A stretch of DNA of 64,000 nt from Myxococcota bacterium (GCA_963674735.2 CAXXQS010000001.1:1472001-1536000); one strand, 5' to 3'; positions 39,527 through 45,089 are shown, counted from the stretch's first letter. The notes: a model not told the origin generated them from the letters alone. A program made the numbers and translations.

Positions 39527-41215
39527 ATGAGCCGCTTATACAGCAAAGACGCCCTTCAGGCGATCATCGAGCAAAAAGAAAAATGGACCGTCGACGAACT
39601 GGCGGCGGTATTGAATAAACGTCCCGAGATTCGGGAACGCTTTACCACACTATCCGATGTTCCCGTGGAGCGCGTTTATTCTCCCGACGACGTGGCCGAT
39701 CTCGATTACGAACGTGATCTGGGCATGCCGGGCCAATATCCCTTCACACGCGGGATTCAACCCACCATGTACCGGGGGCGTTTGTGGACCATGCGCCAGT
39801 TCGCCGGTTTCGGCACCCCGGAAGATACCAACGCACGCTATCACTACCTGTTGAAGAACGGGCAGACCGGCTTGTCGGTAGCCTTCCACTACCCGACCTT
39901 GATGGGCTACGACTCCGATTCTCCGCGTAGTCGCGGTGAAGTGGGCAAATGCGGCGTGGCGATCGACACCTTGCGCGATATGGAAGTCCTATTCGACGGC
40001 ATCCCGCTCGACAAAATCACGACCTCCATGACCATCAACCCTCCGGCCTCCATTTTACTGGCCATGTATTTGGTCGTGGCTGAAAAACAGGGCGTTCCCT
40101 GGGATCGCGTGGGCGGCACCTGCCAGAACGACATTCTGAAAGAATACATCGCCCAGAAGTCCTGGATTTTCCCGCCCCACCCTTCCCTGCGATTGATCAC
40201 CGATATGATCGGTTTCGCGACGGAACACGTCCCGCGCTGGAACACGATCTCCATTTCGGGCTATCACATTCGCGAGGCGGGCAGCACCGCCGCACAGGAA
40301 TTGGCCTTCACCCTGGCCGACGGCATCGGGTACGTACAGGCCTGCGTGGATGCCGGGTTGGACGTAGACAGCTTCGCCGGACGTCTCTCTTACTTCTTCA
40401 ATTCACACAACGATTTCCTGGAGGAAGTCGCCAAGTTCCGCGCCGCCCGGCGTATGTGGGCGCGCATCATGCGGGAGCGCTTCAAGGCAAAGAACCCTCG
40501 TTCCTGGATGTGCCGTTTCCACACCCAAACCGCCGGTTGCAGCCTGACCGCCCAGCAACCGTACATCAATGTGGTCCGGACCACCGTCCAGGCCATGGCG
40601 GCCGTTTTAGGCGGCACCCAGTCGTTGCACACCAATTCCCTCGACGAAACCCTGGCGCTGCCCACCGAGCAGGCCGTGACCATCGCGCTGCGGACCCAGC
40701 AGATCATCGCCGAAGAATCGGGTCTCGCCAACACGATCGATCCCCTGGGTGGCAGCTACGCCGTCGAGGCCATGACCAACCGCATCGAGCAGGAAGCCTG
40801 GGATTACATCGGCAAAATCGACGAAATGGGCGGCATCATTCCCGCCATCGAGAACGGCTTCCCCCAAAAGGAAATCGCCGATGCCGCCTACAAATACCAA
40901 CGACAGCTTGAAACCGGCGACAAACATATGGTCGGCGTGACGAAATACGTCACCGAGGACGACCCGGGCATTCCGACGCTTTATATCGATGAGATGAAAG
41001 AAACAGAACAAGTCGCCAACCTGCAGAAGGTGAAAGCCGAACGCGATCCGGTCGCCGTGGCGCGTCATATCGAGATTTTGCGCAAGGCGGCCGAAAGCGG
41101 CGAGAACACCATGCCGCATATCATCAATGCCGTGCGCGATTATGTGTCGTTGCAGGAAATCTGCGACGCTTTCCGGTCCGTTTTCGGCGAGTACAAAGAC
41201 CCGGCCTATATTTAG
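39527..41215 (+). CDS. icmA: B12-dependent acyl-CoA mutase large subunit, isobutyryl-CoA mutase type
   Basis: [15 protein letters not shown] (Phe) and KEYIAQK (Gln) at the two specificity positions; [12 protein letters not shown]. Confidence 0.8.
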
Positions 41216-41225
41216 GAGAACAACC

Positions 41226-41651
41226 ATGAGCAACACAGCCAAAATCCGCGTAATGGTCGCGAAACCGGGCCTGGACGGTCACGATCGCGGCGCAAAAGTG
41301 GTGGCGCGTGCGCTACGCGACGCCGGTTTCGAGGTGATCTACACCGGCCTGCATCAAACGCCCGAAATGATCGTCTCAGCAGCCGTACAGGAAGATGTGG
41401 ACTTCATCGGCCTGTCGGTCATGTCCGGCGCACACATGTACCTATTTCCGCGTCTGCTAGACCTTCTGAAAGAGAAGAATGCCAGCGATATCATCGTGTT
41501 CGGCGGCGGCATCGTCCCGGACGACGACAAGGAAAAGCTATACAAAGCCGGAGTGGCGGCGCTGTTCACTCCGGGCGCCCGTACACAAGATATCATCGAG
41601 TTTGTCCGGAATACGTTCCAAACCAAGGACAAAAATGTGTCGAATTCCTGA
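41226..41651 (+). CDS. icmB: Cobalamin-binding small subunit of an acyl-CoA mutase
   Basis: [12 protein letters not shown] (DxHxxG), GGG; ATG after AGGAG. Confidence 0.88.
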
Positions 41652-41680
41652 TACTCAACGGCCACAAGAGGAGGGAATGC

Positions 41681-42829
41681 ATGAAACGAGTGGCGATTGT
41701 GGGAATGGGGCAAGCCGGTTTCTCCCCCACCACTCCCGGGGTTTCGTACCGGGAACTCGTCTTCGAAGCTGCCGTCAAAGCTTACGAAGAGGCAGGGGTT
41801 ACACCGGCGGACATCGGCGGATTTGTAACGGCGGCTGAAGACTTCTGGGAGGGTTACAGCATCGCCGACGAGTACTGCAACGACCAGCTGGGCGCGATTT
41901 TGAAATCGGTCCAGACGGTCCCCGGCGATTTCGTTCATGCGTTGGCCACCGGATTCATGATGATCCGCGCGGGCCTGTTCGACTTGGTGGCGATCGAGTC
42001 GCACAGCAAGATTTCGAATGTCAAAACGCAGGATGACATCAAGTCATTCGCCCTCGATCCGGTGCTCTTGCGTCCGCTCGGACAGAGTGTGCACATGATC
42101 GACGGCCTGGAAATGAACCGCTACCTGTATTCCAGCGGCAACACCCGCGAACAATGCGCACGCGTGGTGACCGAAGCACGTCGGGCGGCACTTGAGAACC
42201 CGCTCGCCTCCTATGGCGCCGCACTCGACATCGAAGACGTACTGATGTCCGATCCGGTCGCCTGGCCCGTCTGTCGCATGGATGTCGCCAACAACGCCGA
42301 TGGCTGCGTAGTGGCGGTCCTGGCGGCGGAGGATGCCGTCCCGCATCTGGCCGGTCAACCGATCTGGATCGATGGCCTGGCCTGGCATTCCGATTCACCG
42401 AATCTGGACACACGCGATCTCGACACCTGCCTGGCGACACGTTTATCGGCCGAGAAAGCTTACAAAATGGCTGGTGTAACGTCTCCGCTGGACAGTATCG
42501 ACCTGTTTGAAATCTCCGATTCCATCTCCTTCAAAGCGCTCAAGCACGCCGAAGCACTCAAGTTGTGTACGGAAGGTGCGGCGGGCGCTCTGTTTGATTC
42601 GGGTGAATTCGGTCCGCGCGGAGCCATTCCGATCAACCCATCCGGCGGCGAGCTGGGAGTGGGACATATGATCGAGGCCTCCGGCGGTCACAAGACCCTG
42701 GAAGTGGTGAATCAGTTGCGCGGGGTGGCAGGCAAGCACCAGATCAAAGACGCCGAATGCGGCCTCGTACAGATCTGGCGCGGGGCTCCATCAACCAGTT
42801 GCGCTGTGATGATTCTAAGAAACAGCTAA
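41681..42829 (+). CDS. Thiolase-superfamily protein lacking the catalytic Cys (Ltp4-like)
   Basis: Thiolase-fold motifs (VAIVGMG, ADG, INPSGG..GVGH) but QTVPGD at the usual Cys position. Confidence 0.8.
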   Translation: MKRVAIVGMGQAGFSPTTPGVSYRELVFEAAVKAYEEAGVTPADIGGFVTAAEDFWEGYSIADEYCNDQLGAILKSVQTVPGDFVHALATGFMMIRAGLFDLVAIESHSKISNVKTQDDIKSFALDPVLLRPLGQSVHMIDGLEMNRYLYSSGNTREQCARVVTEARRAALENPLASYGAALDIEDVLMSDPVAWPVCRMDVANNADGCVVAVLAAEDAVPHLAGQPIWIDGLAWHSDSPNLDTRDLDTCLATRLSAEKAYKMAGVTSPLDSIDLFEISDSISFKALKHAEALKLCTEGAAGALFDSGEFGPRGAIPINPSGGELGVGHMIEASGGHKTLEVVNQLRGVAGKHQIKDAECGLVQIWRGAPSTSCAVMILRNS

Positions 42830-44016: not shown

Positions 44017-44032
44017 GGAAAGGAGCTGAATC

Positions 44033-44611
44033 ATGGCGACAGACGCATTGAAAGGCAAAGTCCTCGGCGGCACCAACGTCAAAGAGGAGGCCTTTAAAAA
44101 GAACCAGATACTCTACTCCCATTTCGAACCACGCATGGAATACGCCTGGGATAACGGCGTCGGAATCGGGATTTACCTGAGCGGACTGAAACAGGGCAAG
44201 ATCCTCGGATCGTATTGCAAGAAATGCGACCGCACGGTTTTGCCCGCCCGCGCCTTTTGCGAACTGTGCTTTCGTCCCACCGATGGTTGGGTGGAAGTGC
44301 AGGATACGGGCACGGTGGAAACCTTTTCCGTCTCGCGTATTCATTTCGATGCCAGCCGCCTGAAAAAAGGGGAAAAGCCCTATATTCCGGCAGTTATCTC
44401 AATCGACGGCGCAAGCGAGAAGATGGGCATCATGCACATGCTCGATGAAGTCGCGATCGAGGACATTCACATCGGCATGAAGGTCGAGGCGGTTTGGCGG
44501 CCGGAGGAGGAACGCGAAGGCACCATCCTTGATATCCGCTATTTCCGTCCGGTAAAGAAGGCGTCCAAACCTCGCGCGGGCAAGAAACCCTCGCCTAAAA
44601 AGCGCAAGTAA
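44033..44611 (+). CDS. DUF35 Zn-ribbon/OB-fold protein
   Basis: CKKC...PARAFCELC, GTVETFS, IGMKVEAVW. Confidence 0.9.
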   Translation: MATDALKGKVLGGTNVKEEAFKKNQILYSHFEPRMEYAWDNGVGIGIYLSGLKQGKILGSYCKKCDRTVLPARAFCELCFRPTDGWVEVQDTGTVETFSVSRIHFDASRLKKGEKPYIPAVISIDGASEKMGIMHMLDEVAIEDIHIGMKVEAVWRPEEEREGTILDIRYFRPVKKASKPRAGKKPSPKKRK

Positions 44612-44624
44612 AGGGGGGGACAAA

Positions 44625-45089
44625 ATGGCTATTCGAGATAAAATCACCCATACCACACATCTTTCCTACTTCGAAGGACAGATTCCGATCAGCTACCGCT
44701 ACACCTACGGTCTGGCCGGGGAAGCCTTCTTTCAGAAGTTCAAGCTGGGCAAGCTGATTGCGTCGGTTGAAAGCGACACCGGCATGGTTTACTGCCCGCC
44801 ACGAATTTTCTGCGAAGACACCTTCGAGGCCATCGACCAGATCGTGGAATTGGACGGCACCGGGACGGTTGAAAGCTACACCGTCGTTTTCGAAGATATG
44901 CACGGCGAGGAACAAGCTCCGGTCGTCATCGCTTACGTGGTGTTCGACGGCGCAGACGGCGGGTTTGCCGCTCCGCTTGACGTCAACCCGGAAGAAGCCG
45001 TGATCGGCATGGACGTCCAGCTGAAATTTGTCAAAAAAGCCGACCGCCAAGGCTGCATCAACGACGTGTATTTCGTTCCGATCAAATGA
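44625..45089 (+). CDS. Second DUF35 OB-fold protein, degenerate Zn ribbon
   Basis: YCPPRIFC, GTVESYT, IGMDV; first CxxC absent. Confidence 0.85.
   Translation: MAIRDKITHTTHLSYFEGQIPISYRYTYGLAGEAFFQKFKLGKLIASVESDTGMVYCPPRIFCEDTFEAIDQIVELDGTGTVESYTVVFEDMHGEEQAPVVIAYVVFDGADGGFAAPLDVNPEEAVIGMDVQLKFVKKADRQGCINDVYFVPIK

Follow-up and report, generated by a model that had tools for sequence, protein, structure and literature searches.

Which reaction could be served by two adjacent thiolase-like proteins that both lack the catalytic cysteine of a thiolase? The question is raised by four consecutive genes in a 64,000-nucleotide stretch of DNA from a Myxococcota bacterium (genome G000, contig C1, positions 1472001-1536000; hereafter the window). 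All are on the + strand: T1 (41681..42829) and T2 (42847..44016) encode the thiolase-fold proteins, and D1 (44033..44611) and D2 (44625..45089) encode DUF35 proteins. A first-pass annotation, made from the sequence alone, had read the four genes as an aldolase of branched acyl-CoA catabolism, and its gene positions were borne out. We think it likely that this module is a retro-aldol-type C-C lyase and, with slightly less assurance, we place it in a branched-chain amino acid pathway. In the specific reaction that we favor, 3-hydroxyisovaleryl-CoA would be split into acetone and acetyl-CoA during leucine or isovalerate catabolism; this proposal is tentative, with a probability of roughly 0.38.

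The loss of thiolase residues, as annotated, is clear. The nucleophilic cysteine of solved thiolases (7yvy, 6esq) aligns with Gly86 of T2 (in FVGGGTG) and with Gly82 of T1 (in QTVPGD). Gly86 occurs without exception in 108 of 108 T2 sequences; cysteine is not among the commonest residues in the corresponding column of T1. The same 108 sequences all have Asn336 in place of the histidine of GHP (giving GNP) and Y285DPF in place of HDCF, as the annotation had noted for T2. In T1, GHM replaces GHP (with histidine in 47 of 98 sequences), and ISDSI occupies the HDCF/NEAF position. Judged from these alignments, T1 and T2 are incapable of the covalent thiolase mechanism. Because T2 is far better conserved than T1 (mean column identity of 73% vs 55%) and has invariant active-site residues (D56, R81, G85-G86, Y285-D-P-F, Y290, H295, N336 and G375-D376-L-M-Q), we regard T2 as the probable catalytic subunit, and T1, whose active site is poorly conserved, as a probably non-catalytic partner.

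A retro-aldolase-type active site had also been proposed, and comparison with characterized enzymes agrees with this. In PMC12329534, the tyrosine of YDHF/YDCY is described as the base in retro-aldol cleavage by Ltp2 and Sal, and Sal as having glycine at the thiolase nucleophile site. T2 has this tyrosine, and it resembles Ltp2-ChsH2 (6ok1) and Sal-Shy (9myr) in the glycine, in the DUF35 partner and in fold: a structure model of T2 (pLDDT 87) has TM scores of 0.82 to Ltp2 and 0.83 to Sal. However, identity to these enzymes is 23-24%, His296 and Tyr344 of Ltp2 and Cys304 of Sal are not kept in T2, there is no fused hydratase, and Ltp2 and Sal are homodimeric, whereas the module has two different thiolase-fold subunits. 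The nearest solved folds (TM 0.85-0.91, with 0.91 to 6et9) are the archaeal acetoacetyl-CoA thiolase-DUF35 complexes (6esq/6et9, 7yvy), BbsAB (7pxp) and PhlBC (5m3k), which have the DUF35 partnership in common with the module. Unlike T1 and T2, 6esq and 7yvy keep the nucleophilic cysteine, as BbsB and PhlC presumably do. A further thiolase/DUF35 pair, described in a preprint on archaeal fatty acid synthase (10.1101/2024.07.05.601840), is a different one.

Two DUF35 genes do follow T2, as the annotation had said. D1 has a complete CxxC-CxxC zinc ribbon with four cysteines, together with an OB fold; D2 matches only the OB fold in Pfam, and its zinc ribbon is degenerate, the first CxxC being lost. 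In this D2 differs from its counterparts, as the second DUF35 protein keeps four cysteines in 67 of 81 related loci. We propose that T1, T2, D1 and D2 would form one heteromeric thiolase-fold lyase, in which T2 would be catalytic, T1 structural, and each thiolase subunit paired with one DUF35 protein. Tyr285 would take the proton of the 3-hydroxyl, and the C2-C3 bond would break as in Ltp2 and Sal. The acyl-CoA enolate would then be protonated; Asp376, a candidate general acid in T2, or Asn336 with water could donate the proton.

The resemblance to Ltp3 and Ltp4 that had been noted is one of kinship and not of membership. T2 belongs to PRK06065 (612 bits, cut-off 455), and the best family for T1 is PRK06066, where it scores 415 bits, below the cut-off of 516, and an archaeal orthologue (L137) scores 522. 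On the Ltp3 family, PRK08313, T2 scores 232 (cut-off 514), and on the Ltp4 family, PRK07937, T1 scores 106 (cut-off 419); Ltp3- and Ltp4-type comparison proteins from related genomes score 671 and 499 bits. T2 is 32% identical to Ltp3-type and T1 26% identical to Ltp4-type proteins. In a maximum-likelihood tree (a quick IQ-TREE run with a midpoint root, on 64 sequences picked from loci, excluding Ltp2, Sal, BbsB and PhlC), T2, T1, Ltp3 and Ltp4 form four clades (SH-aLRT 99-100) that are joined against archaeal thiolases (99), and bacterial T2 is nested within archaeal T2. On this basis, the T2 and T1 families appear to be sisters of Ltp3 and Ltp4, not members of them.

Both systems combine a Cys-less thiolase-fold pair with two DUF35 domains, which in the case of Ltp3-Ltp4 are in one adjacent double-DUF35 protein, and APDxFxGV, R81, YxPF, NPI and AxG..Q are common to both. 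We take Rv3521-Rv3523 to be the numbering of Ltp3-Ltp4 and the double-DUF35 protein. Ltp3 and Ltp4 are presented as aldol lyases for C24-branched sterols in PMC6593523. The module differs in that Asp376 is invariant in T2 and absent from Ltp3-type sequences, in its gene order T1-T2-D1-D2, and in being found mainly in archaea and anaerobic bacteria. It also stands apart from steroid genes: as first annotated, there are none in the operon of the window, nor are there any among the recurrent neighbors of 119 loci.

The module is not a new, local discovery, as had been supposed, but the PRK06065/PRK06066 block, present in 56 of 251 sampled Thermoproteota, where PRK06065 is single-copy. This family also occurs in 6 of 251 sampled Chloroflexota, in Sulfolobus acidocaldarius (among 14 control genomes) and, at high identity, in 2 of 30 G000 relatives. 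Among named relatives, the one closest to T2 (92% identity) comes from a Myxococcales metagenome-assembled genome. At least 579 genomic matches came from a pattern scan, and the 80 best were retained. The neighborhood survey comprised the 119 loci, 41 archaeal and 78 bacterial (L053, an incomplete locus, was left out), with genes called by a custom script that missed some genes in AT-rich loci. T1 was called in 41/41 archaeal and 74/78 bacterial loci, and DUF35 in 37/41 and 70/78.

The recurrent neighbors point to branched-chain amino acid catabolism, the context originally suggested. Acyl-CoA dehydrogenases (ACADs) are neighbors of the module in 27/41 archaeal and 20/78 bacterial loci, and those with an IGEG-type motif (12/41 and 17/78) are its commonest neighbor type. 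Acid-CoA ligases also recur in the archaeal loci (acetoacetate-CoA ligase in 11, a sister subfamily in 13 and acetyl-CoA synthetase-like proteins in 5), and the E1alpha subunit of a 2-oxoacid dehydrogenase is a neighbor in 9. For Calditenuis, a branched-chain amino acid specialist, PMC12979851 reports a casamino-acid metaproteome with consecutive E1alpha, E1beta, ACAD, K00626 thiolase-like and DUF35 genes, one gene in the run being unlisted, and a BLASTp search for MCCC and HMGCL. Because this order, as far as it is given there, matches L154-L156, we infer that the Calditenuis thiolase-like and DUF35 genes are module orthologues. The genes saci_2232/2233 are, we assume, PRK06065/PRK06066 module genes. 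PMC11486757 reports their induction, when nutrients are in excess, together with an ACAD and an acyl-CoA synthetase.

Other neighbors are lineage-specific or few. A role in fatty-acid synthesis, considered for the fabD/fabG neighbors in Anaerolineae, was rejected, as that association was judged positional and limited to the lineage; CoA-transferase (4/78 bacterial loci) and CitE-like neighbors were too few. The CitE-like CoA-ester lyase gene adjoins the module upstream of T1 in some Anaerolineales (L006, L008, L011), and the GctAB-like CoA-transferase near the module in 4 loci has a 65% homologue at G000:C2:933843-935589. In six actinomycetotal loci (L036-L040 and L042) T2 appears to be extended, or fused to the first DUF35 (its length is about 560-570 aa in four of them), and a glyoxalase-fold gene often lies between T1 and T2. 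In L002 (420-7897), 2-hydroxyacyl-CoA dehydratase sets (HgdAB-type, each with an activator) occur twice in tandem just upstream of the module, which suggests amino acid fermentation.

Given this context, we propose that isovaleryl-CoA would be converted to 3-methylcrotonyl-CoA by an IGEG-type ACAD, that a crotonase would hydrate this to 3-hydroxyisovaleryl-CoA, and that the module would cleave the product to acetone and acetyl-CoA, thereby bypassing methylcrotonyl-CoA carboxylase (MCC) and HMG-CoA lyase (HMG, 3-hydroxy-3-methylglutaryl). The partner ligases would act upstream of the module, activating free branched acid. The module would thus serve the same step downstream of 3-methylcrotonyl-CoA as LiuBCDE (MCC, hydratase and HMG-CoA lyase), to which it has no homology. 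The carboxylase independence that had been proposed holds across genomes: the module almost never occurs with these enzymes. In a mostly bacterial set of module genomes, 1 of 50 has an MCC-type beta subunit (at least 55% identity) and 4 of 50 have HMG-CoA lyase; for the archaeal module genomes, the counts are 0 of 55 and 0 of 56, respectively. Any carboxyltransferase match is lacking in 35 of 55 module archaea and has 25-35% identity in the remaining 20; a check with PF01039 confirmed the absence in 5 of 5 module archaea tested. Crotonase was found in 5/5 module archaea tested. Stand-alone, divergent carboxyltransferase-like genes (454-487 aa, 25-30% identical to MCC beta) were observed in L169-L176 (G219, G105, G169, G255, G249, G267, G225 and G279); the roughly 1.5 kb around them contains neither a biotin carboxylase nor a carrier gene.

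We favor the 3-hydroxyisovaleryl-CoA reaction because it is the sole reading that needs no missing enzyme, because it accounts for a tertiary alcohol that is closed to 3-hydroxybutyryl-CoA dehydrogenase (Hbd), and because it fits the sister pair's role with branched substrates. The broader proposal, that through this reaction an old complex with archaeal roots provides a leucine pathway free of biotin and ATP in archaea and many anaerobic bacteria, is offered with a little more reserve.

The association with ligases is strong in archaea. Acetoacetate-CoA ligase exceeds its cut-off in 25 of 251 Thermoproteota, namely 24 of the 56 module genomes vs 1 of 195 others (G194). A sister subfamily (at least 883 bits; next score 694) occurs in 34 Thermoproteota, 31 of them module-bearing, or 19 of 22 once the 12 genomes behind its profile are removed. 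Either ligase is present in 54 of 56 module archaea vs 4 of 195 others, with both in one genome and a split copy in G187, and the pattern spans several T2 clades. Acetoacetate-CoA ligase could accept isovalerate, because the latter is isosteric with acetoacetate. In G000 itself, the acid-CoA ligase is an ordinary acetyl-CoA synthetase only. An acid-CoA ligase subfamily represented by L132:10715-12691 (alignment A4) scores below the acetate- and acetoacetate-CoA ligase cut-offs and hardly ever occurs in the same Thermoproteota genome as acetoacetate-CoA ligase; it may be a second ligase for acetoacetate or for branched acids.

Several points weigh against cleavage of 3-hydroxyisovaleryl-CoA. 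Acetoacetate-CoA ligase, the strongest partner (24 of its 25 carriers are module-bearing), fits acetoacetate and not acetone. The ligase link is not seen in bacteria (20/56 with the module vs 8/20 without), in a test on a mixed alignment (A3) whose threshold of 800 bits was set after the scores were seen. It is important to consider that related genomes are not independent and that many metagenome-assembled genomes are incomplete. Acetone carboxylase is present in 3 of 80 module genomes; reuse of acetone by this enzyme was therefore rejected, and acetone would be lost or reduced. Crotonase is not a conserved neighbor in the surveyed loci. T2 also has neither known general acid, as Tyr344 of Ltp2 corresponds to Asn336 and Cys304 of Sal to Pro287. 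Finally, our literature search, in which subscription journals were largely outside coverage, found no characterization or assay of the PRK06065/PRK06066 module and no in vitro assay of Ltp3/Ltp4.

The ligases count in favor of a second hypothesis, that the module is a non-homologous HMG-CoA lyase (or acts on a related carboxylated 3-hydroxy-3-methylacyl-CoA), yielding acetoacetate and acetyl-CoA, with the ligase re-activating acetoacetate. Such a lyase-plus-ligase scheme resembles the logic of Ltp3/Ltp4 with FadD19 for C24-branched sterols. It would explain the distribution of acetoacetate-CoA ligase, the near-complementary occurrence of the sister ligase in 31 of 56 module genomes (overlap in one genome), and the adjacency of one or the other to the module in 11 and 13 of the 41 archaeal loci. 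Even the exceptional G194 has an HMG-CoA-lyase-like gene (L177:47-1186; 380 aa, 207 bits, below the cut-off) beside a CoA ligase. However, the same lyase-like gene, again beside a CoA ligase, is found in G082 (L178:1363-2502), which, like G194, is a module-less archaeon and which lacks acetoacetate-CoA ligase. The hypothesis also needs a biotin-free source of HMG-CoA in the many archaea that have no carboxyltransferase.

Evidence from G000 itself is likewise two-sided. The window cluster has no carboxylase or HMG-CoA lyase gene, as annotated, and a search of the genome for liu genes found an MCC-like carboxylase (C3:142592) but no HMG-CoA lyase. This carboxylase is part of a cluster at G000:C3:140375-147948 (L097:8376-15949) with a TetR gene, two ACADs, the carboxylase subunits (beta, biotin carboxylase and biotin carboxyl carrier protein), a crotonase and a BKACE/Kce-family gene, which may replace HMG-CoA lyase there. 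Its beta subunit is found at 79-81% identity in G003, G004 and G006, also without HMG-CoA lyase, and because G004 and G006 are module-less, the cluster does not need the module. We therefore rejected replacement of HMG-CoA lyase in the classical Liu pathway as a general role, MCC being nearly always absent from module genomes, and we consider the HMG-CoA lyase hypothesis as a whole unlikely.

Rather improbable, in our view, is Cys-free cleavage of a 3-oxoacyl-CoA (acetoacetyl- or 2-methylacetoacetyl-CoA), in which CoA or water would attack the ketone, with the same enolate-leaving step, and the ligase would make the substrate. A classical thiolase (TIGR01930) is absent from 22 of 56 module archaea, and 19 of these 22 carry acetoacetate-CoA ligase. 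Nevertheless, the other 34 and the window operon have a classical thiolase, archaeal SCP2-type thiolases with the cysteine, which TIGR01930 does not count, could serve in the rest, and free acetoacetate had no source that we could find (HMG-CoA lyase absent, acetone carboxylase as above, BKACE in 0/5 module archaea tested). We know of no precedent for such a reaction in the thiolase fold.

Also improbable is a retro-aldolase for secondary 3-hydroxyacyl-CoAs, for example splitting 2-methyl-3-hydroxybutyryl-CoA into acetaldehyde and propionyl-CoA in isoleucine catabolism, with the aldehyde oxidized and the acid re-activated by a ligase. This would be the chemistry of Ltp2 and of Sal, which acts so on bile acids, in the same branched-chain context, and acetate-CoA-ligase-like neighbors are present in archaeal loci (families k4, 13/41, and k29, 5/41). 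However, the Hbd and thiolase of the window operon can already oxidize secondary alcohols, no aldehyde dehydrogenase is a conserved neighbor in the surveyed loci, and acetoacetate-CoA ligase is left unexplained. Least probable of all is a substrate supplied by the neighboring mutase, or else some unrelated acyl-CoA, of which an isoprenoid-chain intermediate would be an example. In three lineages (L001; L061/L075; archaeal L137), the module does have a Phe/Gln mutase with FxF/YPT immediately beside it, but these are only 4 of 119 loci, and in four actinobacterial loci with a mutase several genes away, the three with readable motifs have the Arg of methylmalonyl-CoA mutase (MCM).

The mutase of the window, a B12-dependent acyl-CoA mutase with a large (39527..41215) and a small, B12-binding subunit (41229..41651), both on the + strand, is nonetheless of the isobutyryl-CoA mutase (ICM) type, as had been annotated. 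Its signature residues are Phe/Ala/Gln, against Tyr/Ala/Arg in MCM and Ile/Asp/Gln in HcmA, and its RQFAGF and KEYIAQK carry Phe and Gln at MCM positions Tyr89 and Arg207, which we take to be the ICM signature; an RcmA-type 2-hydroxyisobutyryl-CoA mutase is a possible alternative identity. Its unusual FHYPT, common to L001 only, has His where MCM, HcmA and other module-linked mutases have Asp (FDL/FDM/FDF/FDY) and may alter specificity. The second mutase of G000 is an ordinary Tyr/Arg MCM. The earlier idea that the mutase defines the pathway did not survive: because it adjoins the module in so few loci, and because G003, of the same family as G000, has the four module genes without the mutase operon, the module does not include the mutase. 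The block of four genes is independent and mobile, and the mutase link is lineage-specific. In the window, the module would have been recruited to a general branched-chain operon, with the ICM-type mutase handling valine (isobutyryl-CoA) in parallel.

This operon is a single co-oriented run on the + strand. Upstream of the mutase (33649..39503) it encodes a MerR-family regulator (by Pfam), an intact thiolase at 34102, as annotated (TIGR01930, 447 bits, cut-off 241), Hbd, crotonase and two ACADs; the module and ACAD3 (45173..46330) follow. Intergenic gaps are 11-41 nt, except for 158 nt between hbd and crt and 83 nt before ACAD3, and motifs resembling ribosome binding sites are present. ACAD3 has an EIGEGT motif, and its best solved-structure match, 7szv, has the same IGEG-type motif; we presume that IGEG-type ACADs (FadE19/AcdH-like) serve leucine, which makes ACAD3 a candidate isovaleryl-CoA dehydrogenase. 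A terminator had been placed after D2. A hairpin does exist there (45098..45121, + strand; a 10-bp GC stem and short U tract), but it is weak (z -1.9), is not among the terminator-scan listings, and may be a stabilizing hairpin. As a stronger one (z -3.0) lies 3' of ACAD3, D2 is followed by a weak stop only, and the module and ACAD3 may share a transcript. Near the promoter, no LiuR box was matched at up to 3 mismatches to the consensus; a related motif is common to L001. At 33618-33673, a promoter-like TTGACA-17-TATAAG is followed by a T(A/G)ACGT(G/T)CACTGGCA motif, a candidate operator that recurs upstream of the L001 regulator. Elsewhere in G000 (C1:1206438-1210387), a further SCP2-type thiolase-like gene, apparently without the nucleophile-loop cysteine, lies downstream of a 909-aa HMG-CoA-synthase-like fusion gene.

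The PRK06065 and PRK06066 families are already known; the branched-chain neighbors, the ligase co-occurrence and the rarity of MCC and HMG-CoA lyase are new here. The module appears to be a real, widespread and misannotated variant of thiolase-fold aldolases. Thousands of records label its genes as acetyl-CoA acetyltransferases, although a thiolase mechanism is impossible for them; 3361 proteins score E<=1e-60 among 8000 candidates, a count that extends into related families. Msed_0270/0271, for example, we take to be this module. Archaeal pathway tables (PMC7078158) list them among the candidate thiolases. If our preferred reading, cleavage of 3-hydroxyisovaleryl-CoA, is true, it would close the missing MCC/HMG-CoA-lyase step of leucine breakdown in peptide-eating archaea and name an unrecognized biological source of acetone, and an enzyme interconverting acetone plus acetyl-CoA and 3-hydroxyisovaleryl-CoA would have biocatalytic use.

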